Assembly: GCA_049889275.1 (NCBI GenBank)
Contig: JBMHDS010000085.1
Span: 153,470 to 217,469 of the forward strand
DNA: 64,000 nucleotides
Source of the DNA: Bradymonadia bacterium
GTDB taxonomy: Bacteria; Myxococcota_A; Bradymonadia; UBA7976; UBA1532
Reading direction: 5' to 3'
The translations under genes were made by a program, and so were the position numbers. Under the pieces are notes generated by a model, which was not told the DNA's origin, did not search any database, and worked only from the letters and a program-made list of their open reading frames with translations. How positions within the stretch are numbered: position 1 is the first letter of the stretch; the number at the start of each line of letters is the position of its first letter. Shown here in pieces: positions 8,359-26,350 of the stretch.

Positions 8359-10260
8359 CTAGGTGGTTTCCTCAAAGTCAGCATCGATGACATCATCATC
8401 GTTGCCACCCGGAGGATCCATATCTGGTCCTGGTGCACCGCCAGCATTAGGTGCTCCCTCTGGCCCGGCCTGGTAGAGCTTCTCCGCGAGCGCATGGCTC
8501 TTCTTGGTGACCTCTTCAATCGCCGCCTCGATAGCAGTCGTTTCATCACGCTCTACAGCTTCTCGGAGAACGGTCAACGCTGCCTCGATGTCACTCTTCT
8601 CAGCCTCGTCAACCTTATCGCCGAGTTCGGTCAGCAGTTTTTCAGTCTGATACACCAACGAGTCACCTTGATTGCGGGTATCGATGGCCTTGCGCTTCTC
8701 GGCATCAGCCGACGCATGCTCCTCGGCGTCGCGAACCATATCTTCGATGTCAGTGTCACTGAGACCACTCGACGCGGTGATCGTCACTTTCTGCTCTTTA
8801 CCCGTCGCCTTGTCGACAGCGCTGACTTTGACAATACCGTTGGCATCAATATCGAATGTCACCTCAACCTGCGGTACAGCACGCGGAGCCGCGGGAATGC
8901 CCTCGAGGTTAAACTTGGCCAAGGTTCGGTTCTGAGGCGCCATCGGCCGTTCACCCTGAAGGACATGAACTGTCACCGCGCTTTGATTATCTGCCGCTGT
9001 CGTAAAGATCTGACTCTTTTTCGCAGGAATCGTTGTATTCCGTGGGATCAGAGTTGTCATGACTTCGCCAAGCGTCTCGATACCGAGAGAGAGTGGTGTC
9101 ACATCCAACAAGAGAATATCTTGGACGTCACCAGCAAGAACGCCAGCTTGAATCGCCGCCCCTAGAGCCACGACCTCATCAGGATTGACACCCTGGTTGG
9201 CTTTTTTACCAAAGAATTTCTCAACCTCGGCTTGCACGAGCGGCACCCGAGTAGAGCCGCCGACCAAGATGACTTCGTCGATGTCGCCCGCCTTCTTTTT
9301 TGCATCCGCGAGCGCTTTCCGACAAGGCTCAAGGGTACGCGCCACTAGATCGCTGATCAGCTGTTCGAACTTCGAACGACTCAATCTCAAATTGAGGTGT
9401 TTCGGGCCTGTCGCATCCGCGGTCAAGAATGGCAAATTAATGTCTGTTTCAGGTACACTCGAAAGCTCGATCTTCGCCCGCTCTGCTGCTTCCTTCAGAC
9501 GCTGCAAGACCATCCGATCTTGGCCAACATCGATGCCTGATTCTTTCTTAAACTCAGCGATGAGGTAATCGATGAGGACGTCATCGAAATCGTCACCTCC
9601 AAGGTGTGTATCACCATTTGTCGCTTGGACCTCGACGACCTCTTCGCTCACCTCTAGAACCGAGACGTCAAAAGTACCGCCACCAAGGTCGTAGACGACG
9701 ATCGTTTCATCCTTCTTCTTGTCGAGACCGTACGCCAACGCAGCAGCGGTGGGTTCGTTGACAATGCGCTTGACTTCAAGTCCTGCGATCTTGCCCGCAT
9801 CTTTGGTGGCCTGTCGCTGGGAATCATTGAAATACGCCGGCACGGTGATCACCGCCTCGGTGACTGGCTCGCCGAGGTATTTTTCAGCGGCACGCTTCAA
9901 TTTCTGCAGAATTTTCGCTGAGATCTCAGGTGGAGCGAGTTTCTTATCGCCTATCTCAATAGCGACGCTGTTGTTCTTGCCAGCGACCACCTTGTAAGGC
10001 GTCCGTGCCGCCTCTTTTGAAGCTTCTTCATAACGAAGCCCAACGAATCGCTTTACACTAAAGACTGTATTTTCTGGATTCGTGATCGCTTGGCGACGAG
10101 CAACCTGCCCCACCAAAACCTCATCATTTTGGTCCCATGCAACTACCGACGGCGTTGTACGCGCGCCCTCTTCATTCGTAATGACTTTCGGTTCCCCACC
10201 ATCCATGACTGCGATGACGGAGTTCGTCGTTCCTAGGTCGATACCGATGATCTTGCCCAT
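8359..10260 (-). CDS. dnaK: Molecular chaperone DnaK (Hsp70)
   Basis: [33 protein letters not shown] signature motifs; 633 aa. Confidence 0.97.
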
Positions 10261-10529
10261 CTGGCTAATCCTTTCGAAACATGCTCGGAAACGGTTTGCG
10301 GGAGATCTGGCTCCCAGACGCTGGGAAAATAATCACCGGCATTCGGGTGTCAACTGATGAAGCAAAAAAAATTATGTCCGATTGTTCTACATCGAATAGG
10401 CGACACATTCTTGGTCGCGAACATGTACTCGGAGCAAGCCCGGGCTCTCGGCGCGGTCATTTGGGTGTTCGATGCCGCTTGCGCTACGGTCACACCGACA
10501 GACATCTAGATGGGAAGACGCAGACGGAA

Positions 10530-11333
10530 TCAAAAATCGCCATTGATGGTGATTGAACTCTCCGATTCGTTGCCATGAAGCGCAATCAGCCCTCCATCAC
10601 CGAAGAGCGCGAGGGAAAGACCGCTCAGCAACGCTGCGGCCCCCACTCCAAAAGCAATATTCGCAGCAAAAGCCATGTCCTCGGCTTGGTCGCTCAATCG
10701 CCCAAAATCTCGTCGATATGTGCTGCGGATCTCTTTCGATGAGGCCTCTTCCGCTATGCTAAGGGCCCGTGTGCCGAAAAATGCGCCTACGCCAATACTG
10801 ACGAGGCCACCGGCAGCTGTCGCAGCGCCGATGTCCGACATTGACCATTTGCGCCAACGAAAACTGCTGCCGCCATCGCCCTCCTCATCGCCCAGTTCAA
10901 GCGGCCAAGTGACCTCCGTTAAACGGCCCGGGCTGGCATTGACCTTCGTGCTTCCTGTAATTTTAGCGCCTGTCTTGAAGACCACTTTATGTGCGCCAGG
11001 GGCGAGTGTCCAAGCTCCAGGCAGTGGCGTCTTACCAATAACCTCACCATCGAGTTCGACGGTGTAGCCGGGCTTATCTGTGCGGACACTGAGTTGGGTG
11101 GGCGCACTGGCGCGTGTCTTAGACTGTTTTTTCTTGTGCGAAGCGCCCGCCGCCTGAGTTTCAGTTTTTTGTTTTGCTTTGGCCTCGCCTTTAGCGGCCG
11201 TGCCAACAACGGGCTGAGCGAGCGCGGCGCTCGTTACCCACAACAGTCCAACAAAGGCTAGGCGCGCACATAACGTGCTATTCCTGTAAAAACATTGATT
11301 CAAATGGGTCACGAAACAACCACCTCTCCACAT
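10530..11333 (-). CDS. Secreted/membrane PEGA-domain protein
   Basis: Start moved to an internal ATG with a GGCGGAG ribosome-binding site (RBS) 15 nt after the lnt stop; signal-like hydrophobic N-terminus; PEGA-like motif YTVELDGEVIGKTPLPG; C-terminal TM segment. Confidence 0.5.
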   Translation of the reverse strand: MWRGGCFVTHLNQCFYRNSTLCARLAFVGLLWVTSAALAQPVVGTAAKGEAKAKQKTETQAAGASHKKKQSKTRASAPTQLSVRTDKPGYTVELDGEVIGKTPLPGAWTLAPGAHKVVFKTGAKITGSTKVNASPGRLTEVTWPLELGDEEGDGGSSFRWRKWSMSDIGAATAAGGLVSIGVGAFFGTRALSIAEEASSKEIRSTYRRDFGRLSDQAEDMAFAANIAFGVGAAALLSGLSLALFGDGGLIALHGNESESSITINGDF

Positions 11334-13039: not shown

Positions 13040-13950
13040 ACGAGAGAGAACTCCGCCGGCAGTTGACCCGCTCGTTCCCCATCGGTCTCGATGAGCACTG
13101 GCGCATCACCGAGCGGCTCTGCACGAATGACCCTTGCCCGATGCAAGGTCACTTTGTCGCGCTCTAAGTGGGTCCCGGCGAACAGTGCCGGTGTGCCCTT
13201 CGCGATCTCCCAAGTCGTTAAATTACCTAAACAAACAACGTCAAAGACGCCATCTGTCATCGACGCCTGCGGCGCAACATGCATACCGCCACCAAAGAAC
13301 TGGGCGTTGGCCACGACGCCATTGTAAAATGTGCCACTTAGCACAATCTCGTCGGGCTCACCTGGATCGAGAATAATGCGCATTGGCTGGTTTTTATACT
13401 TGAGTGTCCCGCGCGCCACGCCCATTAGAAAACTCGCCTTCCCGCCCAAGGCCTTCGATGACGTATTCACCGCTTCGACGACGTGGCCGGAGACACCAAA
13501 GCTCGAGATGTTAATAAATGCCCCCGTCTCCTGGTCACCGCAAGCCGTCGTGTATGCGATTCGACCGATGTCCACTCGACGTGGGTTCTCACCAACGTAT
13601 TGAACCGCATCAACAGCCGAATCTGGTAAGCCGAGACTCCGTCGAAAGTCTCCTCCGGTGCCCGTGGGTAGTATCGAAAGCACCACATCATCAACAACGG
13701 TGCCATCATCGGTCAAGCAGCCATTGACCACTTCATTATGTGTTCCGTCCCCTCCGACCGATACAATTGACCGATAGCCCGCCTCAAGCGCTTGTCTTGT
13801 CAATGTGGTGGCATGACCAGGGGCCTTCGTTTCAAAGATCTGAAAGTCCGAAACCTTGGCGCGCAATGCTTGCGCGAGACGCGGCCAACGTTTGCCGGTT
13901 GCGCCATTTGCACTCGCAGGGTTCAGAATGACAGCATACCCCTCGCTCAT
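12988..13950 (-). CDS. DAGK_cat-family lipid kinase (YegS/BmrU-like)
   Basis: AVILNPASANG...GKRW and SVGGDGTHNEVVNG motifs of the diacylglycerol-kinase catalytic domain family. Confidence 0.8.
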   Translation of the reverse strand: MSEGYAVILNPASANGATGKRWPRLAQALRAKVSDFQIFETKAPGHATTLTRQALEAGYRSIVSVGGDGTHNEVVNGCLTDDGTVVDDVVLSILPTGTGGDFRRSLGLPDSAVDAVQYVGENPRRVDIGRIAYTTACGDQETGAFINISSFGVSGHVVEAVNTSSKALGGKASFLMGVARGTLKYKNQPMRIILDPGEPDEIVLSGTFYNGVVANAQFFGGGMHVAPQASMTDGVFDVVCLGNLTTWEIAKGTPALFAGTHLERDKVTLHRARVIRAEPLGDAPVLIETDGERAGQLPAEFSLVCSALTVCSGPQARAFC

Positions 13951-14993
13951 GCGCTCTCCTCCATCCCTAAGCTTGCGAGCAAGAGACTGCTCAGTCGAGA
14001 AACCTGCCTTTTGTGTAACGAGTTTCTAAGGTGTCTTGAGCAGCCGCCTAACGCAACGATATGACTTGATTCAACATCTTCAAACAGGTCTTCTCCCATC
14101 CGCGCACCCAGCTCCGGATAGCGTCCCGCGAAGCCATCGCCTGCACCGCAACACGCCGCACGGTCCGCGTTGAGTAAAGTCTCTTCGACAGCACCCGTAG
14201 TCAGTCGTGACAAGATCTCGCTTACGATACCAAGCCACCTTGGCTCAGCAAACAGACGACAGGGATGCACGGGCACCATTGGAGCCTCGGTCACCGCTGC
14301 GATCTGCTCCATCTGATCCTCGACAAGAGACAGCACAAAGACCACCGATACGCTCTCTCGAAGCGGATCGTAAGTCGGTGACATGAGAGTCCGATAGTCG
14401 TCGGGGTCGAGACACACGATACTCTGGCAACCAACGGCTTGCGTAGTTACATGGCGTACGTGCTTAGCAAACAGGTCTGCGCGTCCTGCCTGCAAAAAAC
14501 GGCCACCGCTGTGCCAAAAAAACTCGTCAGTATAAGCATTGTCGATATCGAGGCACTTTAGAACACCGGCCCATTCTCTCAGTTCTTCGGGTTCGAGTTG
14601 GCCGGGCAGTATCAGACAATCTCCCTCGGCCGGCCACATCTCGAACGACCTTGTCAAACCCAGCTGGGCCAGCTCGTGTTCGAGCTGCGGGTTGTCGGTC
14701 CGCATACTGGCTGTCTGTACGCGTAATTTTTGAACAGCCTCGTGTACCGGATTGTCGTGTTTGCAGTGGGCTGTGCACGCGCCGCAACCAGCGCAATGGT
14801 CCCAAATCTCTGCAACGGAAGCATCGAGTTTTACAAACCCGCGCCGTACGTCATCGGCCAAGGTCATTAAGCCCCAAGGCGTCACTGCCTCACGACCCTC
14901 AGCCTCGGCTACGCCACAAGCGAATCGACATAACTTTGGGCAGAAAACACATGTCTCTACAATATCTGCAAGGTCTTCTAAATCGAGCTTCAT
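13947..14993 (-). CDS. Fe-S oxidoreductase subunit (GlcF/GlpC-like, CCG domains)
   Basis: CxxCxxxCxxxC and CAGCGACTAHC ferredoxin-like cysteine clusters plus a CCG motif (ACCGAG); start set at the internal ATG (MKLDLEDL) directly abutting the upstream gene stop. Confidence 0.7.
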   Translation of the reverse strand: MKLDLEDLADIVETCVFCPKLCRFACGVAEAEGREAVTPWGLMTLADDVRRGFVKLDASVAEIWDHCAGCGACTAHCKHDNPVHEAVQKLRVQTASMRTDNPQLEHELAQLGLTRSFEMWPAEGDCLILPGQLEPEELREWAGVLKCLDIDNAYTDEFFWHSGGRFLQAGRADLFAKHVRHVTTQAVGCQSIVCLDPDDYRTLMSPTYDPLRESVSVVFVLSLVEDQMEQIAAVTEAPMVPVHPCRLFAEPRWLGIVSEILSRLTTGAVEETLLNADRAACCGAGDGFAGRYPELGARMGEDLFEDVESSHIVALGGCSRHLRNSLHKRQVSRLSSLLLASLGMEESA

Positions 14994-15973
14994 CGAGCCC
15001 CCTCCCCCGCTGCAAGATGCTCTTCGAACTTGGCTGCAAGCGCCCGCCACCCATCATCAGCTCCCGTATCGAGGCGCCCAACACAAAGGACTGCCCCGGG
15101 TTTGAAGTCAAAGGCAGGCTGACCTTCCCACGTCCCAGCCTCGATCCAAGAGGGCCTTTGACTCGGCCGTTCGTAAGGTACGCGCTCGACCCGCTCTAGA
15201 GCTGGAAAGCACGCTCGCAAGTACGTCTCCACATCCTTCACGAGACAGCTCGATGAGAATGTTCCGGTCAACTGCCAAACAGCGCCAACGCGCTCTCCCT
15301 GCCAGTAATCAGGCTGAAGTCCGCGTGCCTGGATCGAGTTGACCGCGTCCAATAAACGTCCTCGTTCGTCAAACTCGAGACGTACAGAAATTTGCGTAGT
15401 CTCAAGCGGCCATAGCTGGAGCACGCATTCACTCAGAATGACGCCTCGCGCCCGCGGCGTCATCATGCATCGAGCGAGGTCAGGCCCCATCGAACGGCGC
15501 GGTGCTAAAGCACATCGCGTCAGCCCGGTAGCCGTCGCCGCCGTCAGCGACAAGACCATATCTCTCACAGCTCCATAGCGCGGTGAAGGGCGTGGGATGT
15601 ACTCACTTGACAGCATATCGTGAACGGTGCCACGCCGACATCCGTCGGATAACGGTCCAAGCGTGAACCCTTCATGGCGGGCCGCGGTCTCGACCGCCGC
15701 CACTGATGCCGCTGCCCCAACAACGGCGTAGCAACCCTTCCGGCTGATTCGAAGAATGCCATTCAGCGCAGAAATGTCGACCTGAATCACCGCTGGGTCA
15801 AAGTCGAAGGCCGGCGTCGAGACAACCTGCCAACGTTCAGTCGCTTGCTGAAGCCCAGTCAGTAATGAGACCGCCTCCTCATCTGATTGGACGGCGACCA
15901 CACGCGCGCCCTCACTGGAGACCAATGCGCTCCAACCGCCGAGTAAGGTGACCCTCTTCCACCGCTGAGCCAT
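14990..15973 (-). CDS. GlcE-like FAD-binding subunit (degenerate PCMH domain)
   Basis: GPDLARCMMTPRARGVILSECVLQLWP resembles the FAD-linked oxidase motif (GYDL..GSEGTLG..) but with substituted glycines; TAATG overlap with the upstream oxidase gene. Confidence 0.5.
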   Translation of the reverse strand: MAQRWKRVTLLGGWSALVSSEGARVVAVQSDEEAVSLLTGLQQATERWQVVSTPAFDFDPAVIQVDISALNGILRISRKGCYAVVGAAASVAAVETAARHEGFTLGPLSDGCRRGTVHDMLSSEYIPRPSPRYGAVRDMVLSLTAATATGLTRCALAPRRSMGPDLARCMMTPRARGVILSECVLQLWPLETTQISVRLEFDERGRLLDAVNSIQARGLQPDYWQGERVGAVWQLTGTFSSSCLVKDVETYLRACFPALERVERVPYERPSQRPSWIEAGTWEGQPAFDFKPGAVLCVGRLDTGADDGWRALAAKFEEHLAAGEGAR

Positions 15974-17496
15974 TAGCGCATGACCTTCCCTGGGTTCATG
16001 ATACCCACTGGGTCGAGGGTTGACTTCAATGCGCTAAAAACATCTACAGCAGAGCCGTTTGCTGCCGCCATGTGTGACATTCTCGATAGCCCAACGCCGT
16101 GATGATGCGCGATGGCGGCACCGGCCTGCAGTGCCGCATCGAGGCCAGCATGCCAAGCCGCACGGTATTTTGTGCGGATTTTTTCAACGCTAGGCGCGCT
16201 TCCTGCCATGGTAAAATAAATGGAACACCCACCTGGATACACGTGAGAGAAGTGGGCCATGACGACCACATAAGGGGCCATCGCCCGCCTGACAGTATCG
16301 TAAACTTGATAGACATTTTCCCAAGTGGTGGCCACCTCAAAGGTGTCGACGAAACAGCCTGCGCGATACAGTTTACTCTGCTTGAAGCTCACATCGTAAC
16401 GATGGTTCATCCAGGCCCGGGCTGGACCTTCTCCCTGGTCTTCTCCGCCGTGCTCACGAGCAATATGGGCGAGGCTATCTGCGGTCATTCGCGACTCTTC
16501 AATACTGCCCTCGGACACCGTGATCGCTAACACAGGCCCTCGCCAGGCTCTCACAAAGGCATTCGATAAGCGTGCCTGACCGAGCGCGAAACGAAGCGCC
16601 CCCTTCTTAGACGTCCCCCCTCGGGACGGCCCGCTGAGTAACCCTCTCAAACGACCCGAGAGCCCATTCATGGACTCGTTGGGATCGGCGCCAACCATCC
16701 GCGTATCGAGTGGGTCGTACATTCTGAGTACAGCTGGCCGTAAACCACCGATCATAGCATCTCGAAAGAATCCGAGACCCGACTGAATATCCGGCATCAG
16801 CCACGCTCTGAAGTGCCGGGCTGCTGGAAATTGGTGCAGACGCAAAGTCGCCGCGGTGATCACACCGAGTGTCCCCTCACTCCCGATGAAGACTTGGTTC
16901 CAATCCAAGCCATCAATTTGACTCGGCGTCTTTCGAACTAGCCCATCAGCTGTGACCACTTCGAGGCTCTCGACCATGTCTTCGATCTTACCGTAGCGCG
17001 AGCTGCATTGGCCCGCCGACCGAGTCGCAACCCAACCACCTACGGTCGAACACAAGATGCTCGACGGGAAATGACCCAAAGACAGGTCACGCCGATTTAG
17101 CCAACGTTCAAAACGTTCCCCGTTATATCCAGCTTCGACTTCTACAATGCGTTTCGTCGTGTCGAGTGCGCGAATGCGTCTGAGACCTTTCAAGTCAAGC
17201 ACCACTGAGCCCTTGGCCGGCACAGTACCGCCACAGACACCGCTGCCGGCGCCGAAGGGTACAATGGGTACGCGCTGATTGCGGCAAACATCGATCACCC
17301 GGGCCACCGACGCGACATCATTTGGATAAGCCACATACTGCGGCGGAGTGAGTTCATCACCGCACAGGCGGTCGAGTTGCATCTGTGGCCAGAGATCGCG
17401 GGCGTAGGCCCGTTTGGTCGCCTCACCGAGGCACACTTGTGCATCTGAGAGCGCGCCGACGAGGCCGCGATATAGTTCGGTGCTTGCTTCGGTCAT
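15973..17496 (-). CDS. FAD-linked oxidase, VAO/PCMH family (GlcD / D-lactate dehydrogenase / alkyl-DHAP synthase-like)
   Basis: PFGAGSG...GGTVP FAD-binding PCMH domain, GSEGTLGVIT, and C-terminal IAHHHGVG (a His-His-His variant of the usual SxEHGxG motif). Confidence 0.8.
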   Translation of the reverse strand: MTEASTELYRGLVGALSDAQVCLGEATKRAYARDLWPQMQLDRLCGDELTPPQYVAYPNDVASVARVIDVCRNQRVPIVPFGAGSGVCGGTVPAKGSVVLDLKGLRRIRALDTTKRIVEVEAGYNGERFERWLNRRDLSLGHFPSSILCSTVGGWVATRSAGQCSSRYGKIEDMVESLEVVTADGLVRKTPSQIDGLDWNQVFIGSEGTLGVITAATLRLHQFPAARHFRAWLMPDIQSGLGFFRDAMIGGLRPAVLRMYDPLDTRMVGADPNESMNGLSGRLRGLLSGPSRGGTSKKGALRFALGQARLSNAFVRAWRGPVLAITVSEGSIEESRMTADSLAHIAREHGGEDQGEGPARAWMNHRYDVSFKQSKLYRAGCFVDTFEVATTWENVYQVYDTVRRAMAPYVVVMAHFSHVYPGGCSIYFTMAGSAPSVEKIRTKYRAAWHAGLDAALQAGAAIAHHHGVGLSRMSHMAAANGSAVDVFSALKSTLDPVGIMNPGKVMR

Positions 17497-17658: not shown

Positions 17659-18366
17659 ATGAGCCGAAGTTTAATCATAGCAGCGCTGCTCTTCGCCTGG
17701 ACAGAGGGGGTCGCACGAGAGCCTCTCCGCAACGATAGAGACCCGATCCTAGATTCCGAACAAGCACCTGAAAACAAACGACTCAAGCGCCCAGACTCAG
17801 CGCCCAATGGGCTCATCGTTCGCAGCAGTGGCTTAATCTACTTCGGAGACGTCCACAGCTACCTCTTACCGGAGCAAAGTCGTCTACTATCGGGTGCTCG
17901 CCCGGGTCTCGGGTTTGGACTCGGCGCCCGTGTCGGGGCCCGTTTAGAGTTGGCTGTTGATGTGAGCCTGGGGTTAGGCAAGACCTTCGAGATCGACAGG
18001 CCTCAAGGGAAGAGCGCCTTTGATGTGCTCATCGATCCCCGCGTACACATCCATGTCGTAGAGCATGACCCGTTGAGTGTTTATGCGGGCCTTGGTGTCC
18101 TCTTTGGCCTCTTTGACCTTGAGAAGTCTGGCGTGAGCCAAGCTGGACTCGGCCCCAGTCTATCCGTTGGAGCGCTGCTCGCAATCGACCGTCACTTCGG
18201 CCTGTTTATTGATTTGAGCGGCTCTTATTTCTACGACGCGCTCGCCTATTCATATCGTGAAGATGAGACGGGCTTTGGACAATCAATGGAACGTCTGTCC
18301 AAGGAAGAAGGCGACTGGTTCAGAATATATCGCATGACCTTGGGATTACGTTTGGCTGGTTTTTAA
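17659..18366 (+). CDS. Small outer-membrane beta-barrel protein (hypothetical)
   Basis: Signal peptide; alternating hydrophobic pattern; C-terminal beta-signal ...LGLRLAGF ending in Phe. Confidence 0.5.
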   Translation: MSRSLIIAALLFAWTEGVAREPLRNDRDPILDSEQAPENKRLKRPDSAPNGLIVRSSGLIYFGDVHSYLLPEQSRLLSGARPGLGFGLGARVGARLELAVDVSLGLGKTFEIDRPQGKSAFDVLIDPRVHIHVVEHDPLSVYAGLGVLFGLFDLEKSGVSQAGLGPSLSVGALLAIDRHFGLFIDLSGSYFYDALAYSYREDETGFGQSMERLSKEEGDWFRIYRMTLGLRLAGF

Positions 18367-18749: not shown

Positions 18750-19793
18750 TTAGCCAACCGCAGCCGTAGTGGTTTGTTCCACCGACTTGGAAGATGAGAA
18801 CATTTGACTGTACATCTTCACACTTTCGATAGACTCAAGCCCAAGAATCTCGGCCAGAGCGACGGGGTCTTCATTCTGTGCCCAGTACTGCAACGCAAAT
18901 GTATTGCGCAACAGCTGGGGCGAGGCTGTCACCCGCGCGAAGGTTGCGTGTTTGCGTACAACTCGCTGCACACCATTGATGCTCAAGCGACCACGCTCAC
19001 CCACGAACAGCGGCCAGTCACTCAGAGGCCCCATCGCATCGAAGGGCATCGGTGAGTTTGGCAGCGTCTTCAAAGCCGGTACCTGTGCCGGGTTCGGTGG
19101 TTCAATGCTGTCAGAAGGAGGCCAACCACCACTTGCAGGCAGCACGATCTCACCATCGGCCGGCAACTCGAGCAATCCGCGTTCACCAAGACTCCAAGCG
19201 AGTTTGCGTGCCGCTCGAGTCGGTAACGGCACCACCCGGGTGTACTTTGAACGCACCGTCAACTCACCGCTTCCGAAATCCACGTCGCCCACATCGAGGT
19301 CGACAAGTTCGCTGATACGCATACCGCTATCGAGTAACGCGTAGATAATTGCTTGGTCTCTAAAGCAGCCTCGACGGTCAACGTAGTTGAGCAGTTGGTG
19401 GACATCCTCTGCGGGCATTACACGCGGTGCACGCTCGGCTCTCTTCAGCTTTGCTTCATCGCGTATCGCGCTCACAGTCACGTCATCCACGAGCCCGTTC
19501 GCCCCTAACCAGACAACATAGCTTCGTGCGAAAGCCAGTCGGCGTAATACGGTTGATGGGCTACGGCCTTTTCGCTCCGAATCCCGCCGCCAGCCAGCGA
19601 CCACATTGGCCGAGAGCGCGAGTCCGTCGAATGTCTCACCTTCGCTGCGACGGTACCAGATGGTGAGGTCCTGCCAATCTGAACGGTAAGACCGTGTTGT
19701 CGATGCGCGTCGACCACGCAGTTCCAACCATCCAAGGAATTCATCGAAGCGCTCACACTCAGCAGGTGTCGCAAATCGGTTTGAAATCGTCAT
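18750..19793 (-). CDS. Tyrosine recombinase / phage-integrase family protein (recombinase A), with substituted catalytic histidines
   Basis: SAM-like N-terminal domain (TTRSYRSDW), box I GMRISEL, LLRNTFA and C-terminal ...VKMY; His positions of the canonical HxLRH...GH...Y pattern read Q/N and L. Starts 82 nt downstream of the flagellin A stop on the same strand. Confidence 0.8.
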   Translation of the reverse strand: MTISNRFATPAECERFDEFLGWLELRGRRASTTRSYRSDWQDLTIWYRRSEGETFDGLALSANVVAGWRRDSERKGRSPSTVLRRLAFARSYVVWLGANGLVDDVTVSAIRDEAKLKRAERAPRVMPAEDVHQLLNYVDRRGCFRDQAIIYALLDSGMRISELVDLDVGDVDFGSGELTVRSKYTRVVPLPTRAARKLAWSLGERGLLELPADGEIVLPASGGWPPSDSIEPPNPAQVPALKTLPNSPMPFDAMGPLSDWPLFVGERGRLSINGVQRVVRKHATFARVTASPQLLRNTFALQYWAQNEDPVALAEILGLESIESVKMYSQMFSSSKSVEQTTTAAVG

Positions 19794-19875
19794 GTCTATC
19801 TCCTGGCAAATTCTGAGGAAGCCGTAGGACTCAGCCTACGGCCGGTTTGATTCACTGCGACCGAATGTCACGCCT

Positions 19876-21288
19876 TTACTGAAGGAGAGACAGGGCCTGC
19901 TGTGGTACCTGGTTTGCCTGTGCCAGGATGGTCGTTGCAGCCTGTGTAAGGACCTGATTCTTAGCTAAGTTTGCTGACTCTGCAGCGAAATCAGCGTCCA
20001 AGATACGGCTTTTCGCTGCTGCTGCATTCTCTGAAACCGATGACAGGTTGTTGATCGTGCTCTGCATTCGGTTCTGCACAGCACCCAACTCGGCTCGGTC
20101 AGAAGCGATCTGTTGAATCGCGCGGTCTAAGATGAGCAAGGCATCATTAGCGCCCGGCCTCGTGGTGACATCGATGGTATCAACGGTGTTATTGGCTGTG
20201 ACGGCGACGATGGCATTTGGCACCATACCGATCTCGCCTTCACCACCCCCACTGACCTCAAACTGTGAGTCGGAGACAAGACGCAATCCGGCCCGAGTCA
20301 CGTCGCTATTGAGACCGGTAACAGCACCCGCGTTACCGACCACATTCACTTCAATGTTACGCCCATCGGCGGCCACCAATTCAATCCGTCCGTCATCGTC
20401 TCGGCGAGCCAATACACCCGTTTCGGTAAGGTCGGCGTTGATTGCATTGATGAACTTCTCATCGGCATCATCCTGCTGCACGCTGAATCCAGTAAAGATT
20501 CGACCGTTAATTTCCACATAGTTGGACTCGTCCAAGACACCACCGCCAATATCACCTGTCGCTGCACGCTCCGTCTCGGTCACGTACGCCGTCACCCCGG
20601 TGAACTCAGTGAAGTCATTGATCGCAGCTGCCTTAGCGATAGCCGATGCTGTTCGCTGAGTGGTACTGATTTGGTCGTCCACAAGCTGTGTTGCACGGAC
20701 CGTGACACCGTTGATTGTCAAAGCGTCATTGCCAATGCCATTCGCACTCACCGGACCCGACTGAAAGCTCGCGACTCGGCCAATGGTTTGGGAGCGGGCA
20801 TCTCGCACACGGACTCGGATACGCTCTTGGAAGTTCATACCGATATGGAAGAACTTATCATTGAAGGTGCCGTCTAGGAGTTTTTGCTGGTTAAACGTCG
20901 TCGAGTCACCGATACGCTGCAATTCGTCCGTGAGCTGCTTCACTTCGTTTTGAATCGCTTCACGATCGGCGGCCGTATTGACGTCCGATGCTGCCTGAAC
21001 TGCGAGCTCGCGCATTCTTTGTAGTACTGCAGTCGACTCTTGCAACGCACCCTCGGCGACCTGTACCAAGCTGATGGCGTCGTTGGCGTTCCGAATCGAC
21101 TGGTTCAACCCGCGCACCTGGCTGTTGAACCTCTCACTGATGGCCAGACCTGCCGCATCATCAGCGGCGGAGTTGACTCGCAAACCGCTCGACAAGCGCT
21201 GGAAGCTTGTACCGAGTCTCTTGCTGCTACCGAGCAAGTTGCGCTGTGCATTGTTGGCGAAAGAATTCGTATTAATGAAAAGGCCCAT
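19876..21288 (-). CDS. fliC: Flagellin (flagellin A)
   Basis: Canonical D0/D1 N-terminus (INTNSFANNAQRNL...LSSGLRVNSAADDAAGLAISERF) and C-terminus (LAKNQVLTQAATTILAQANQVPQQALSLLQ); variable central region; GGAGGA RBS 7 nt upstream. Confidence 0.95.
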   Translation of the reverse strand: MGLFINTNSFANNAQRNLLGSSKRLGTSFQRLSSGLRVNSAADDAAGLAISERFNSQVRGLNQSIRNANDAISLVQVAEGALQESTAVLQRMRELAVQAASDVNTAADREAIQNEVKQLTDELQRIGDSTTFNQQKLLDGTFNDKFFHIGMNFQERIRVRVRDARSQTIGRVASFQSGPVSANGIGNDALTINGVTVRATQLVDDQISTTQRTASAIAKAAAINDFTEFTGVTAYVTETERAATGDIGGGVLDESNYVEINGRIFTGFSVQQDDADEKFINAINADLTETGVLARRDDDGRIELVAADGRNIEVNVVGNAGAVTGLNSDVTRAGLRLVSDSQFEVSGGGEGEIGMVPNAIVAVTANNTVDTIDVTTRPGANDALLILDRAIQQIASDRAELGAVQNRMQSTINNLSSVSENAAAAKSRILDADFAAESANLAKNQVLTQAATTILAQANQVPQQALSLLQ

Positions 21289-21650
21289 GATTTGTCCTCC
21301 GTGACAAATTACGCATCACATCCATGCGATCCGTATCAAGTTGGCCGAGCGATGACCTTCATCACTCGAACCGGTTAAAATGGCGGCGCCCTCAACTGCC
21401 CTCGAGCACGTCGCCTAAAAAATTTCTTCATCGATAAGTCGCACCTCGCCTGTTTGTGCTGACGCAAGCGCCGCACGGGGCCAGAACGACTGGTCTAAAC
21501 TGTTTTTTTCTGCCCGGATTTTCGGGTAGAAGCAGAGCAAGCGTCTCGGTCGTTCAACTCGCCCCCCGGTCAACTTAAGTGGGGGGTCAACGAGATGACT
21601 TCAGCGAGCCGCAGCTCCTTGAGTAAGCCGTAACTTACCCAATTGGATCG

Positions 21651-21950
21651 CTACACCTTAGTGTCGTACCAAGTTGGGCGACGTCCGCTTTGCTTCGCGG
21701 CGATAGCACTCCAAAAATTATCTCCGGTCTGCCCTGTCACCTGCGCAAGACGTACATCCAAGTCTTTGTCTGTATCGCGCAACAGTGCTGCAACCCGTTG
21801 TGTAAACTGTGTTATGGTCTTGAGCATACTCTCGTTACGACCGATTCCCGCGGCGTTAAGTGCCAATGAAATCTCATCGATTTCATGTCGGTTTTTCCCT
21901 GCCATATCGCACCTCCTTGTGCACGCTGTAGCGCCGCTCACGCGGCCCAC
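21651..21950 (-). CDS. Hypothetical small protein (uncertain)
   Basis: ORF only; no recognisable motif; possible shorter start at MAGKNRHE. Confidence 0.25.
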   Translation of the reverse strand: MGRVSGATACTRRCDMAGKNRHEIDEISLALNAAGIGRNESMLKTITQFTQRVAALLRDTDKDLDVRLAQVTGQTGDNFWSAIAAKQSGRRPTWYDTKV

Positions 21951-22202
21951 ATATTTTGGCTAGACGGGTTGCGTTGAACTCACGCTTACCGTGCGAACGT
22001 CGCCCATCCATATCGCCTATTTTTAGTTCATTCGAGCAGCTAGATTCGTGACCACCATCGCTTGAAGCAAGGATGGTGGTTTGTCCGAACCAAGCCATCG
22101 TCCCACTGAACCCAAGTGCCTACTCGCACTCAACTCGGACTGGTCAGCTCAAGTTGCTGCCTGCCCTGCTTCAGTTTTCCTGTTCGAGTTTCCATGTCTT
22201 TT

Positions 22203-23063
22203 TCAAGTGCCGAACATGTAAAACTCTCCTCGGTTCCAAAAGCGCTGATGACAGCGCTTAAGGCCCCAAATTGTGACGCTCATGGCGTCGTAATTTCGCT
22301 GTTTTTCGAGCTCGATTAGACCACACACCACGCGTCGGTTGCGCGGCGGTCTCCGCCTTCTAAAGCCGACGGGCAGCCCAGACCATTTCACCCCAACAAG
22401 ACCGGCGTCAACGTCGCCTGCCGCACAGGCTACCGGCTCCTCGGCATTCACCTCTGAAGACCTCCTGAATGCGTCAGTCCGCCTGTCTAGGTTCGACTCG
22501 ACACAGTCATTGCGACTCGGGCCACCACGTGTGGGCGAAGCCAATTCGAGCACGCTCTGCCCTTCGTTTGCGCCCGGCGACTGTTCGACACCGGGTCTCG
22601 CGCTATCGTGATGGGCATTCAGGCTCACCACTGGAGCGAGCATCGTCTCTCCTCGTAGCGCGCCCACGCTATCGCCAGCCGGTAGCTGCCTCCCGCTCGA
22701 CCCCGTATCGTCATCAGCAGTCGCTGTGACGTGCTCGCGGTCAATGTTTGGAAACTTGATAACTCTTGCCTCGGGGCGGACCTCCGAACCGGTACGCTTC
22801 GATTGAACCCGCCCGTGCAATGCATCGTGAGCCGTCTGTCCAACGCTCATATGCACATTTGTCGGCTTCGATTCGGAGGCGCCGCCGCGGAGCGTGACAC
22901 CCTGGACTGAGACGGCCGCCCACTGGTTCTCCCACTCAGCGCGCGAGAACTCACCATGTCCAAGAGCTGTGAACCAGCTCACCGATGGCAGAGCACCAAG
23001 CGCCCCATCTAAAGGCGTCATGTTACTCGAATCGCGTTTCAGTGTTTGATTAGAAGTGTACAC
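22203..23063 (-). CDS. Hypothetical protein, predicted disordered (uncertain whether coding)
   Basis: Longest ORF in the 1.4-kb region between flagellin A and recombinase B; low-complexity composition; overlapping alternative-frame ORFs on the other strand. Confidence 0.25.
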   Translation of the reverse strand: MYTSNQTLKRDSSNMTPLDGALGALPSVSWFTALGHGEFSRAEWENQWAAVSVQGVTLRGGASESKPTNVHMSVGQTAHDALHGRVQSKRTGSEVRPEARVIKFPNIDREHVTATADDDTGSSGRQLPAGDSVGALRGETMLAPVVSLNAHHDSARPGVEQSPGANEGQSVLELASPTRGGPSRNDCVESNLDRRTDAFRRSSEVNAEEPVACAAGDVDAGLVGVKWSGLPVGFRRRRPPRNRRVVCGLIELEKQRNYDAMSVTIWGLKRCHQRFWNRGEFYMFGT

Positions 23064-23364
23064 CGTCTATCTCCAACACGCCCCGTTTGTTACATCGGAG
23101 CACTACATACTTACGCTCATACAGCCCACGCTGTAGTCACAATCTCTACGTTATCCCCAAGACCCATTCGTCAGACGTCCAATCCTTGGGGTTTCACTCG
23201 AACTCACCGTACACTCAAATGGGTGACACGAGAGTTCGACTCAATGTTTTCAACCTGTCCTATCGTATCCTGAATACTGAGGTCGCACCTCGCCTCTTGG
23301 CTGCTGCAACAACCTGAACTCATGGACACATCTACTTGATATCAACTGCGGTATCGTACCGAGC

Positions 23365-24333
23365 TTAATGCCCTTCGCCGCCGCCTACGACCATCGCTGG
23401 CCCCTGAGCGGTGAATCGGTCATCACCCACTGCCTCATTCATCTCATCACTGTTCAGATACAAGCGAGTTGTCTCCAAGCTCTCATGGCCAAGCATGTCT
23501 GCGAGTGCCACGACGTCGCCATCAGCAGCGAGAAAACTACTCGCGAAAGTATGGCGCAGCGTGCTCGGTGAGACCTTGACCTTCGCGAATCCACAGTACT
23601 TCCGAACAATTCGCTGAATCGCATTCGGTGTCAAAGGTCCACGTTCACCAAGGAACACAAGTCCTGTAGAACGGCCGCGATAAATCAGGTACTGACGGAG
23701 CTTCCGCTTTGCATGACCGCTGATGGTCAAACGTCGGATACGCGTCCCGTGCGGCTTGTAGTCATGCACTAAGATGGTGCAACGATTACCGTTGTTAATC
23801 ACCTGGCTCATGTCTAACTCAGCCAGCTCACTGACTCTCAACCCTGTACCCAGAAGCGTGTAAATGATCGCCTGGTCTCTGGGTGATGCCCTGTGTTCGA
23901 CAGAACGAAGGAATCGCTTTAACTCGATGTCAGACAAACCCTTTGGTCGGCGCGGCGCTTGAGGCACAGGCTTCACTTTTCGAATCGACTCAGCCAAATC
24001 GCTGTTGACCAATCCGCGGGTCGCAGCCCAGCCCACATACCGCTTTGTGAATACAAGCTTCCGATTAATGGTTGCTGGCCGCATGCCCTGGTCGACAAGA
24101 AAGGCAACGTAAGCCTTGACTTGTTCGACACTGACAAGACCTAGGGTAAACGGCTGGCCGCTGTATTCAACGCACCACTCATTGAGTCCAATCCAATCAC
24201 TGCGATACGAACCGATGGTTTTTGGAGCGCGTCCGCGTCCCCGCAACTCATTGACGAACCCAGCAAATAGAGCCTTTTCATCTTGATGCTCACCTGTCGT
24301 TATCGCCAGGCTGTTTTTAGAATCCTGTTTCAC
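23365..24333 (-). CDS. Tyrosine recombinase / phage-integrase family protein (recombinase B)
   Basis: GTG start with AAGGAG RBS; TIGSYRSDW N-terminal SAM-like domain, GLRVSEL, TLRHTFA, LGHESLETTRLY catalytic region; paralog of recombinase A; starts 132 nt after the flagellin B stop. Confidence 0.85.
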   Translation of the reverse strand: MKQDSKNSLAITTGEHQDEKALFAGFVNELRGRGRAPKTIGSYRSDWIGLNEWCVEYSGQPFTLGLVSVEQVKAYVAFLVDQGMRPATINRKLVFTKRYVGWAATRGLVNSDLAESIRKVKPVPQAPRRPKGLSDIELKRFLRSVEHRASPRDQAIIYTLLGTGLRVSELAELDMSQVINNGNRCTILVHDYKPHGTRIRRLTISGHAKRKLRQYLIYRGRSTGLVFLGERGPLTPNAIQRIVRKYCGFAKVKVSPSTLRHTFASSFLAADGDVVALADMLGHESLETTRLYLNSDEMNEAVGDDRFTAQGPAMVVGGGEGH

Positions 24334-24465
24334 TTTGTATCTCCTTTGTCACTGACACTTTGCTAGGGCGCACACACCTGTCCTGTTCGACACGGCTCAA
24401 GCGAGCTGTCGTCGGAGAGCGCGCGCGCTCAGTTTTGCTTTAGTCGTTCACTTTGGTGCTAAGGC

Positions 24466-25887
24466 TTAGCCACCCTGTAGGAGACTCAGAACCTGCTGTG
24501 GACCAGCATTTGCCTGAGACAAGATTGAGATACCTGCTTGTTGCAATACGTTATTTTTCGCGAGGTCGGCTGACTCAGCGGCAAAGTCAGCGTCGCGAAT
24601 TCGACTTCGCGCCTGCTCTGCTGATTCGAGTACACCACCCAAGTTAGAAATCGTCGACTGCATCCGATTTGACACAGCACCCAATTCGGCACGGTCACTG
24701 GTGAGCTGAGCGATGGCTCGGTCTAGCCTGAGAATCGCTTCATTGGCTGTGAAGCGCGTCAATACATCCATGCTCGCCACGTTCTCACTTGTGTTCACAC
24801 CAACGAAGTCATTGTCCGCAAAGCCTACAAATGACTCGTTATTGCCGCTCAATTGGTACTGCGCCTCGCTGTACATATTGATCTGCGCGGTCTGTACTGT
24901 CGATGCACCTAGACCGGTGATCAAGCCGGCATTACCCGATGTTTGGATCTCAATGTTTCGACCGTCCTCAGCCTCGAGCGTGAGATGCCCACGCCTGTCG
25001 AGTGAAGCGGTGACACCGGTGATCGGAGACTCTGCATTAATGGCTCGGACGAGTGTCTGTGTCGCATCATCGGACTGAACATCGAACCCGACGATCGAGA
25101 CCCCGTTAATCACCACGAAGTCAGTCGCATTGAGGGTACCGCCCGTAACACCTGCGGCCGCAACAAACTCAGTTGGCATCGCTCGCGCAGTGACACCATG
25201 AAACTTGGTGGTATCGTTAATCGCTTTCGCTTTGGCAACGGCCGAGGCGGTGGAGAAACTCGTCGACAGCGTATCATCCGCGGGTACAGTCGCCCGAACG
25301 GTGATGTTGTTGATAAGTAAATCTCCCGCCGCCAACGGGTCGGTACTGACGACGTTCCCTGTCTTGACAGCTTGCCGCGCCAGCACATCCGACCGGCTAT
25401 CTCGGATACCCACTTGGACCGTCTGTCTCGCAAACGCCCCCACTTGGAAGAAACTATTTACGAAAGAGCCGTCGAGAAGCTTGGTACCGTTAAAGGATGT
25501 GTTCTCGCCGATGCGTGTCAGCTCTTCTTTGAGCTCCTCAATCTCGTCGTTGATTGCCGCTCGGTCCCGCGCATTATTAATGTCGGAAGCTGATTGAACA
25601 GCAAGTTCGCGCATTCTTTGTAGGATGTTTGTTGATTCGCTGAGAGCTGATTCCGCCAATTGAGCAAGTGAAATTGCATCGTTCGCATTGCGAAGAGCCT
25701 GCCCAAGACCACGAATCTCGCTCGTGAAACGCTCGCTGATTGCGAGGCCAGCCGCGTCGTCACCTGCGTTGGTGATGCGAAGGCCGCTGGAGAGTCGTGC
25801 AAAGTTACGGCCGAGTCGGCTCTGGCTCTGCATCAAGTTGCGCTGTGCGTTCATCGACGCAACGTTTGTGTTTACGTAAAGTCCCAT
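24466..25887 (-). CDS. fliC: Flagellin (flagellin B)
   Basis: Start set at MGLYVNTN (GGGAGGA RBS); N-terminal NAQRNL...LSSGLRITNAGDDAAGLAISERF and C-terminal LAKNNVLQQAGISILSQANAGPQQVLSLLQGG; central domain unrelated to flagellin A. Confidence 0.95.
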   Translation of the reverse strand: MGLYVNTNVASMNAQRNLMQSQSRLGRNFARLSSGLRITNAGDDAAGLAISERFTSEIRGLGQALRNANDAISLAQLAESALSESTNILQRMRELAVQSASDINNARDRAAINDEIEELKEELTRIGENTSFNGTKLLDGSFVNSFFQVGAFARQTVQVGIRDSRSDVLARQAVKTGNVVSTDPLAAGDLLINNITVRATVPADDTLSTSFSTASAVAKAKAINDTTKFHGVTARAMPTEFVAAAGVTGGTLNATDFVVINGVSIVGFDVQSDDATQTLVRAINAESPITGVTASLDRRGHLTLEAEDGRNIEIQTSGNAGLITGLGASTVQTAQINMYSEAQYQLSGNNESFVGFADNDFVGVNTSENVASMDVLTRFTANEAILRLDRAIAQLTSDRAELGAVSNRMQSTISNLGGVLESAEQARSRIRDADFAAESADLAKNNVLQQAGISILSQANAGPQQVLSLLQGG

Positions 25888-26350
25888 CTTTATCCTCCCT
25901 GGATAATCCCGCTCGAACCATCGAGTCGGGTAGGCGTCCATGCCTGTTTCGTGGAATTAACCGGTTGGCCCTTGCCCACCGTATGTAACTGTTTTCGATG
26001 AGGAATCTGCCGTCTTGGCCTGTTCCGTCTCGCTTCACCCTAGTCATCGTCATACGCGCCGCCAACTTGAGAAAAAAGTGCATCATTATGTGTTTTTTTT
26101 TCGTGATACCGATCCAACTAGCTTATCCGGCCAGTTTAAGTACCCCCTGATATAGTTATGGTGCGAGCCCTCACCCCTAAAAGAATCAAGCCTAGTAAAA
26201 TCAAGCACTTAAAGAACACTCAAAACAGCGGAACGGACATCAAAATTATCCACGTGCGACCATGATAGTGGTAAATATTGGCGATAAATAACTGCATTGT
26301 ATAACGCAGATAATTTTTCGGATGACTTTTTATGCGGCCAGTATGCGGGC

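Follow-up and report, generated by a model that had tools for sequence, protein, structure and literature searches.

In C. difficile, the tyrosine recombinase RecV inverts a flagellar switch (PMC5386303, PMC7446863), and in E. coli H17 the integrase Int1157 excises the flnA flagellin island (PMC3378880). MrpR (YopR) has a recombinase fold from which catalytic residues have been lost, requires its tyrosine for DNA binding and does not carry out recombination (PMC10516654). MrpR and SroF are the master repressors of SPbeta-family Bacillus phages (PMC10516654; bioRxiv 10.1101/2025.11.27.690993), and XerD of B. subtilis takes part in the unloading of SMC complexes at XDS sites (PMC11894783). The locus described here lies in a 64-kb stretch of DNA, referred to as the window, from contig JBMHDS010000085.1 of a Bradymonadia bacterium. 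It contains two flagellin genes, fla2 and fla1, each followed by a gene for an Xer-like protein with a tyrosine-recombinase fold, rec2 and rec1, respectively. The association of flagellin and rec genes is robust, and a literature search found no published account of it and nothing relevant beyond RecV and Int1157. It is possible, and this is the reading that is tentatively favored here, that rec1 and rec2 are exapted Xer-like DNA-binding regulators that are co-expressed with flagellin and are analogous to MrpR and SroF.

A first-pass annotation of the window had placed two flagellin and two tyrosine recombinase genes on one strand, with spacers of 82 nucleotides (nt) between fla1 and rec1 and 132 nt between fla2 and rec2 and with about 2 kb between the two modules. 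Open reading frames (ORFs) and Pfam matches confirm the four genes and their positions on the minus strand, and the distance from the rec2 stop codon to the fla1 start codon is 2,076 nt. Transcription of the minus strand encounters fla2, rec2, a poorly conserved ORF, a small ORF, fla1 and rec1, in that order. The genes of the locus and its border genes are:

24466-25887, minus strand: fla2, flagellin of 473 aa with Pfam domains Flagellin_N and Flagellin_C
23365-24333, minus strand: rec2, Xer-like tyrosine-recombinase-fold protein of 322 aa, GTG start, Shine-Dalgarno sequence AAGGAG
22203-23063, minus strand: orf286, ORF with little conservation and no family match, in the hypervariable stretch 3' of rec2
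21651-21950, minus strand: orf99, small conserved ORF predicted to encode an amphipathic helix and a basic C-terminal tail
19876-21288, minus strand: fla1, flagellin of 470 aa, ortholog of the last flagellin of the array
18750-19793, minus strand: rec1, Xer-like protein of 347 aa with a conserved insertion of ~50 aa
26415-26768, plus strand: orf117, small ORF of membrane-like character, divergent from fla2 and conserved as a syntenic border gene adjoining alaS
17659-18366, plus strand: orf235, protein with a signal peptide, convergent with rec1 and likewise conserved as a syntenic border gene

Both flagellins match the Pfam models Flagellin_N (E ~1e-44) and Flagellin_C (E ~1e-25) as well as NCBIfam flagellin models (~400 bits), and they are 55% identical to one another. 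The rec1 and rec2 proteins are 32% identical, with the ~50-aa insertion in rec1, and match Phage_integrase (PF00589) with 55.5 and 81.4 bits, respectively, against a cut-off of 27.1; in Pfam both also have a weak match to an N-terminal SAM-like domain.

Scans of species-representative genomes and of metagenomes gave 22 and 79 loci, respectively, and the flagellin, rec1, rec2 and border genes were mapped on all of them. The consensus order is alaS (+), orf117 (-), a flagellin gene (the fla2 ortholog), rec2, a small ORF, zero to four flagellin genes, a further flagellin gene (the fla1 ortholog), rec1 and orf235 (-), with the flagellin and rec genes all co-directional across the mapped loci. The order and orientation are shared by ~17 species-level metagenome-assembled genomes (MAGs) of Myxococcota/Bradymonadia, ~10 metagenome contigs with upstream flank and several individual look-ups. 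In every related locus the first flagellin of the array is the ortholog of fla2, rec2 always follows this first flagellin, and rec1 always follows the last one. The locus borders are alaS upstream and orf235, DAGK and lnt downstream in every species. The first-pass annotation had raised the question of whether flagellin-integrase adjacency is conserved in relatives, and it is, in the same order and orientation, down to recombinase identities of 38-46%: the arrangement adjoining alaS is found at rec2 homologs that are 82%, 60%, 46% and 38% identical to that of the window. An extra member of the rec2 clade that was reached through the rec1 search (P0174) has the same gene order.

A co-directional flagellin gene lies directly upstream of the recombinase gene in 25 of the 28 scan-derived rec2-family loci with adequate upstream flank, versus none of ~61 generic tyrosine-recombinase loci (25-35% identity, from the same scan) with a flagellin within +-9 kb. 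The three exceptions (L025, L026 and L033) are diverged paralogs in unrelated, non-syntenic contexts; two more, L009 and L011, came from direct look-ups, and no synteny was found among the contexts of these five. The chance juxtaposition that the first-pass annotation had kept in view is excluded, and the linkage of flagellin and rec genes is functional, not accidental. In addition, four independent assemblies of the window's own organism, retrieved by exact-protein look-ups, are collinear with the window at 98.9-99.8% identity.

The rec1 and rec2 clades together are monophyletic with respect to generic Xer relatives in 199 of 200 neighbor-joining bootstraps, and therefore the flagellin-recombinase module was duplicated once, anciently, which bears out the module duplication that had been read from the window. 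The two proteins are paralogous descendants of one Xer-like tyrosine recombinase and have been inherited vertically. The ratio of nonsynonymous to synonymous substitution rates is 0.05-0.29 for rec2 and 0.13-0.22 for rec1, versus 0.07-0.17 for alaS, values which indicate purifying selection on both rec genes comparable to that on alaS.

The six catalytic positions of tyrosine recombinases were mapped through alignments to XerA (4a8e) and XerD (1a0p). The canonical R-K-H-R-H-Y pattern occurs in 36 of 37 generic Xer relatives versus 1 of 78 rec2-family proteins, and in none of the 52 aligned rec1-family sequences. The common forms in the rec2 family are RRSRHY (23 proteins), RRGRHY (19) and KRQRHY (11), and rec2 of the window has R166, R198 in place of the lysine, S257 in place of a histidine, R260, H283 and Y292. 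The corresponding residues of rec1 in the window are R, Y, Q, R, L and Y; across the rec1 family they are R or K; R, W, P, Y or H; Q or H; R; L, N, H or Q; and Y, with Arg-II kept in 52 of 52 sequences and the tyrosine in 50 of 52. Both families have lost the beta-hairpin lysine and the box-II histidine, and the rec1 family mostly lacks His-III as well, while both retain the two-domain recombinase fold, Arg-II and the tyrosine. The residues that replace His-II vary (S, G, Q or T), suggesting relaxed constraint at a residue involved in the chemistry. Neither protein has the full R-K-H-R-H/W-Y set of an active tyrosine recombinase, and their catalytic centers have decayed, partially in rec2 and extensively in rec1.

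The Pfam match and the two-domain fold place both proteins in the tyrosine recombinase superfamily. An AlphaFold2 model of rec1 (predicted local distance difference test score of 86) has the Xer/integrase fold, and its best Foldseek matches are XerA, IntI (2a3v), Tn1549 Int, lambda Int, XerH and Cre, with the repressor SroF also among the matches. The insertion in rec1, GEIVLPASGGWPP...SPMPF...WPLFVGERG, is conserved (residues ~205-260, window ~19015-19180) and lies roughly where integron integrases carry an extra domain. After the helix that bears the tyrosine, the rec2 proteins end in a common tail with the motif RPxx[VA]xGG (window 23365-23420); in Xer and Cre, the region after this helix mediates contacts between protomers. 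The first- or second-best sequence match of rec1 and rec2 in the PDB is chain 14 of 9i5v, a 401-residue chain of a ribosome structure deposited as 'RaiA', whose N-terminal ~290 residues are XerC/D-like with a fully canonical active site; this chain may be a fusion or an annotation oddity, and no publication about it was found.

The closest families of rec1 and rec2 are XerC, XerD and XerA (E values of 1e-30 to 1e-42 against XerC models), and they share the SAM-like core-binding and catalytic domains of the Xer proteins, including XerH and XerS. Since XerC and XerD are a paralogous pair, as are rec1 and rec2, and some members of the family are found away from flagellins, the two proteins could have a function unrelated to flagellin, for example as the lineage's XerC/XerD in chromosome dimer resolution or in some other aspect of DNA organization, with the synteny being incidental. 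Such a function is improbable, however. Against the NCBIfam XerC model, rec1 and rec2 score 103 and 144 bits (cut-off of 335), and against the XerD model 92 and 122 bits (cut-off of 330), and their active sites are non-canonical where those of nearly all generic Xer relatives are intact. Unlike XerC and XerD, moreover, they lack Lys-beta and His-II, rec1 has the 50-aa insertion, and the genes are embedded in flagellin operons and are not linked to dif or FtsK. No dif-like palindrome was found in the locus, and GC skew is monotonic across the window. Their positions after the first and last flagellins persist while neighboring genes change, and rec1 may begin as close as 20 nt to a flagellin stop codon, an operon-like spacing which is unlike incidental synteny.

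The likeness to MrpR and SroF lies in a two-domain recombinase fold with degenerated catalytic residues and a retained tyrosine. MrpR and SroF act as DNA-binding regulators, whereas a regulatory role for rec1 and rec2 is proposed from sequence and a structural model. The phage proteins are lysogeny repressors that act on repeated phage operators and have <25% sequence identity to recombinases; rec1 and rec2, in contrast, are chromosomal, clearly Xer-derived, paralogous and wired into flagellin operons, and they have kept more of the active site, especially rec2. If the two proteins are regulators, they would no longer be efficient recombinases but would regulate the flagellin locus by sequence-specific binding or bridging of DNA. 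They would be made by read-through from flagellin transcripts, rec1 having no recognizable promoter, and because of this their level would report flagellin transcription and would feed back on it. Such feedback could set which of the flagellin genes are expressed, or it could insulate the array. A sigma-28-type promoter would drive the first flagellin, with CsrA-type GGA leaders adding post-transcriptional control. This proposal draws support from the conserved architecture, the control with generic loci, the degenerate active sites, the selection on the rec genes and their single origin, as well as from the fold, the precedent of MrpR, the lack of recombination signatures, the operon-like spacing and candidate cis elements that are specific to the locus. 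The promoter, leader and other noncoding elements of the locus are:

26109-26131, minus strand: conserved upstream block GCCGGATAAGCTAGTTGGATCGG of 23 nt, containing one C[CG][GC]ATAA box
26044-26081, minus strand: sigma-28 (FliA)-type promoter of the first flagellin, GCACTTTTTT-CTCAAGT-N14-ACGATGA, assigned by resemblance to the consensus only
25888-26043, minus strand: 5' leader of fla2 with the GGA hairpin GGCATGGACGCC (25933-25944) and a GGA in the Shine-Dalgarno sequence, a motif conserved across loci
24417-24430, minus strand: GC-rich palindrome GAGCGCGCGCGCTC just past the fla2 stop codon
21442-21453, 23286-23297 (1 mismatch) and 24375-24386 (2 mismatches), minus (coding) strand: locus-specific 12-nt motif ACAGGCGAGGTG
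21289-21328, minus strand: 5' leader of fla1 with hairpin CGCATGGATGTGATGCG (21312-21328) and hairpin TTTGTCACGGAGGACAAA (21291-21308), the latter with the Shine-Dalgarno sequence
19821-19842, minus strand: stem-loop GCCGTAGG-CTGAGT-CCTACGGC between fla1 and rec1

All loci have a sigma-28-type promoter, which carries a T-tract and an A-tract, and it stands only before the first flagellin. The distance from this promoter, whose consensus is GCAYTTTTTT-CTSAAGT-N13-15-CCGATGA, to the first flagellin downstream is 180-225 nt in most loci and 123 nt in L007; in the window, the promoter is ~160-195 nt upstream of the fla2 ATG. No sigma-28 or sigma-54 consensus was found before the internal flagellins or the rec genes, nor a sigma-54 consensus anywhere in the loci. 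One to four direct C[CG][GC]ATAA boxes precede the promoter of the first flagellin, 19 being observed versus 0.13 expected in the 160 nt upstream of the promoter in 15 loci, which is a >100-fold enrichment. These boxes resemble the sigma-28 -10 element and also resemble the XerC arm of dif (GCGCATAA). The GCCGGATAAGCTAGTTGGATCGG block is invariant in the close relatives of the window and unique within the 64 kb, and it may serve the first flagellin promoter as an operator or as an activator site. Copies of the 12-nt motif ACAGGCGAGGTG lie in direct orientation ahead of rec2, behind rec2 and ahead of fla1, with no matches of 0-1 mismatch in the 64 kb outside the locus. Exact copies stand at the analogous sites of L005 (9954 and 12538), and the motif is kept in this closest relative, not in distant ones.

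In the flagellin leaders of the window and of loci L005-L029, a GGA-loop hairpin, GCATGGAYGC, is accompanied by a GGA in a Shine-Dalgarno hairpin (GTCAYGGAGGAC), and the ribosome-binding site GTCA[CT]GGAGGAC recurs before all internal flagellins. The predicted leader hairpins put GGA in their loops, with modest fold z-scores of -1.8 and, for the fla2 leader, -2.2. CsrA sites known from Bacillus hag are built in this way, with GGA both in the loop of a hairpin and in the Shine-Dalgarno sequence, as are flagellin mRNAs under CsrA/FliW control, and the leaders are candidates for a separate, post-transcriptional layer of control on the flagellins. A similar GGA hairpin also precedes rec2 in L013 and L014. 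For fla2, the ATG at 25941 that gives the longest ORF was rejected because it falls inside the conserved leader hairpin GGCATGGACGCC; the preferred start is the ATG at 25887 (MGLYVNTN...), which has GGAGG just before it.

In all loci but L029, where the distance is 448 nt, rec1 starts 20-95 nt past the stop codon of the last flagellin and has its own Shine-Dalgarno sequence. This operon-like spacing suggests co-transcription of rec1 with the last flagellin. The spacer between fla1 and rec1 holds hairpins of different sequence in relatives or consists of just 20-66 nt with the Shine-Dalgarno sequence. The rec2 gene lies 96-362 nt past the first flagellin, behind a GC palindrome; palindromes of other sequence follow the first flagellin in other loci too, and that of the window, GAGCGCGCGCGCTC, is likely an attenuator or a 3'-stabilizing stem-loop. 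Co-transcription of the rec genes with the flagellins by read-through would be the simplest reading of this arrangement.

The first-pass annotation had suggested a flagellin variation or expression switch run by the recombinases. In the known switches of the FimB/FimE and RecV type, an invertible element has flanking inverted repeats and occurs in both orientations, and neither was found here. In the window, the promoters and genes of the locus are not flanked by credible inverted repeats, and this includes the regions upstream of fla2 and fla1; nor were short repeats around each module, for which the first-pass annotation had suggested a search, found in the window or in 15 loci. No inverted genes or segments and no orientation variants were found at the assembly level in >40 loci, nor were there structural variants among the four assemblies of the window's organism or among 8 and 18 contigs of two relatives. 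Models of tyrosine-type DNA invertases give 19 bits against cut-offs of 221-222. RecV does resemble rec1 and rec2 as a tyrosine-recombinase-family protein tied to the control of flagellar gene expression, but it is encoded elsewhere, is catalytically canonical and inverts a 154-bp element with inverted repeats upstream of the flgB operon, whereas rec1 and rec2 lie inside the flagellin array and have degenerate active sites. Salmonella Hin shares with them a recombinase gene that adjoins a flagellin gene (fljBA), yet Hin is a serine invertase that acts on hix inverted repeats around a promoter, so that family, chemistry and architecture differ. The switch as originally proposed is not supported, given these results together with the loss of catalytic residues and the lack of gene-conversion tracts between flagellin copies. 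Flagellin paralogs within a locus have 64-80% nucleotide identity with a longest exact match of <=51 nt, and their order is conserved between related species; the low identity and short matches argue that there is no ongoing gene conversion or shuffling.

It is still conceivable, albeit unlikely, that rec1 and rec2 are active but atypical site-specific recombinases, perhaps heteromeric like XerC/XerD, that rarely rearrange the flagellin array and so generate variation. They might excise, insert or duplicate flagellin units between sites near rec2 and near rec1, or operate a small switch. The tyrosine nucleophile and Arg-II are invariant, rec2 also has Arg-I and His-III, and selection on the rec genes is strong. 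In addition, rec2 and rec1 bracket exactly that part of the array in which flagellin number varies, and the DNA that follows rec2 is hypervariable, containing tandem arrays as well as, in a single MAG, an inverted repeat of 322 nt. Tyrosine recombinases also control flagellar variation elsewhere (PMC5386303, PMC3378880), contrary to the statement of the first-pass annotation that they were unknown in this role (RecV: PMC5386303, PMC7446863; Int1157: PMC3378880), and Int1157 works even without conserved sites. On the other hand, the general-acid lysine and His-II are lost family-wide, and rec1 lacks three or four of the six residues. An all-against-all comparison of intergenic regions within 15 loci revealed no shared att-like or dif-like site and no inverted repeats, and what it did find was the flagellin ribosome-binding site, the GC palindromes that follow flagellin stop codons and tandem repeats particular to individual species. 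The co-directional, collinear state of the >40 loci and the age and conserved order of the flagellin paralogs also argue against rearrangement. A more specific form of this idea, that rec1 and rec2 are a heteromeric, chemically atypical pair that builds and edits a flagellin cassette array in the manner of an integron or shufflon, is quite improbable; it would explain the bracketing of the variable-number part by the rec genes and the hypervariable interval after rec2.

Some of the same observations weigh against the proposal that rec1 and rec2 are exapted regulators. Species differ in having 0 to 4 flagellins between rec2 and rec1, and the interval after rec2 (window 21951-23364) is hypervariable, ranging from 0.4 to 3.6 kb and repeat-rich in other species; a recombination model would explain both more directly. 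Of the six catalytic residues, rec2 has retained four (R, R, H and Y), and its lysine-to-arginine change is conservative, so residual or specialized catalysis by rec2 is possible. An invariant tyrosine and Arg-II would be equally expected of an active enzyme. No conserved DNA motif that can be linked to the rec proteins was identified among the loci, and the CSSATAA boxes may bind something else. DNA binding and regulation by rec1 and rec2 are functions that are read from sequence and a model. Finally, the family is not restricted to flagellin control, since the five paralogs in L009, L011, L025, L026 and L033 are not beside flagellins.

The other suggestion of the first-pass annotation, that the flagellins are cargo of small integrative elements, has fared worse. 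It is very improbable, and largely refuted, that the flagellin-rec pairs are small integrative or mobile elements, with flagellin as the cargo and rec as the integrase, or form a cassette platform like that of an integron, even though an integrase-family gene stands beside each flagellin, IntI is among the best structural matches and the insertion in rec1 lies roughly at the place of the extra domain of integron integrases. The cargo model is refuted because the chromosomal context is fixed in all species and the locus has no tRNA genes, Rfam matches or flanking direct repeats, and its G+C content of 52-58% is like that of the rest of the window, with no anomaly. Thus none of the marks of a mobile element was found, namely variable presence, att repeats, an insertion target or a deviating composition. 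The scores with integron integrase models are 39-44 bits (cut-off of 265), the intergenic comparison of the 15 loci revealed no family of attC-like repeats, and the rec genes are co-directional with the flagellins rather than divergent from the cassettes as in an integron. The flnA island and the related flk and fll islets resemble the locus in that a flagellin gene lies beside a tyrosine integrase gene, and their outcome is a change in the expressed flagellin. The flnA island, however, is a horizontally acquired segment of ~35 kb that is irreversibly excised, whereas the rec locus is vertically inherited and syntenic and bears no signatures of excision.

Between rec2 and fla1, the window has orf286 and orf99, neither of which matches Pfam or NCBIfam. 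The similarity of orf286 to L005 is limited to ~55 N-terminal residues. Most loci have an ORF of the orf99 type between rec2 and the flagellin that comes next; it encodes ~70-100 aa with an Arg-rich tail (for example, L113 8964-9173 and L007 2796-3026) and has been annotated independently as a gene in source records, though its start codon is uncertain. It might assist the rec proteins as an accessory factor or might be a small flagellar regulator. In the corresponding interval, L016 has a 1.3-kb array of ~54-bp tandem repeats (~9950-11290), L023 has a 27-bp repeat (~9117-9222) and L013 has 33- and 99-bp repeats together with a 322-nt inverted repeat that contains nested 39-nt arms (9564-10632). 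The inverted repeat of L013 was set aside as evidence, as only one MAG has it, and it could be a miniature inverted-repeat transposable element or an artefact of assembly. A 22-nt match to the C-terminal coding region of flagellin at 22126-22147 was considered as a flagellin relic and rejected, the similarity ending at 18 of 22 nt. Assemblies of the window's organism break at 22561-22830, within orf286, and at 24532-24552, in the conserved 3' end of fla2; these breaks may come from repeats or strain heterogeneity and are weak evidence.

A divergent relative, L010/L028 (CAYLJJ010000001.1, 6666-12294), has two flagellin genes, a 76-aa ORF, one recombinase gene and a third flagellin gene. The recombinase gene has overlapping start and stop codons, and the third flagellin begins 12 nt after it. 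The rec1 clade includes this lone recombinase with 100% support, and the single-recombinase array is possibly the ancestral state.

A profile scan found no further flagellin or recombinase ORFs in the whole window. As the first-pass annotation had noted for its surroundings, no other flagellar genes accompany the locus: Pfam scans found no flagellar structural genes among the 29 other ORFs of the window, and none was found within +-10 kb in relatives either. The other ORFs are of a housekeeping nature (DnaK, Lnt, a YegS-like kinase, glycolate-oxidase-like subunits and the alanyl-tRNA synthetase AlaRS) and also include ABC transporters, Ser/Thr kinases and a sigma-54 activator. The glycolate-oxidase-like genes form a three-gene block (window 13947-17496) between orf235 and YegS/DAGK-lnt, consisting of a FAD_binding_4/FAD-oxidase_C gene and genes for a middle subunit and a 4Fe-4S subunit. 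This block is extra in comparison with L005 (16170-19832), and the flagellin locus is unchanged between the two despite this insertion.

The locus is a chromosomal flagellin array of an uncultured aquatic lineage of Bradymonadia-like Myxococcota. Records that contain it are labelled as MAGs of Myxococcales, Myxococcota, Bradymonadia or Nannocystaceae and come from marine and lake samples. Myxococcota are better known for gliding motility than for flagella. Cultured Bradymonabacteria have type IV pilus motility and a needle-less type III secretion system (PMC11509652), and flagellins are highly expressed in uncultured marine Myxococcota MAGs (PMC11937823).

The clearest characterized recombinase-fold regulators found in the literature are the phage repressors MrpR and SroF. 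If rec1 and rec2 are indeed regulators, they would constitute a cellular case in which Xer-type recombinases were domesticated for gene regulation, as a chromosomal, lineage-wide pair within flagellin operons. They would also add an extra layer of control for filaments made of multiple flagellins, and would offer a natural series of active sites, from partly to heavily degenerated, along the path from recombinase to DNA-binding protein. If they are instead active enzymes, they would represent a new recombination-based system of flagellin variation in predatory, environmentally abundant and uncultured Myxococcota. Either way, the arrangement flagellin-rec2 ... flagellin-rec1 beside alaS provides a precise marker for this locus.

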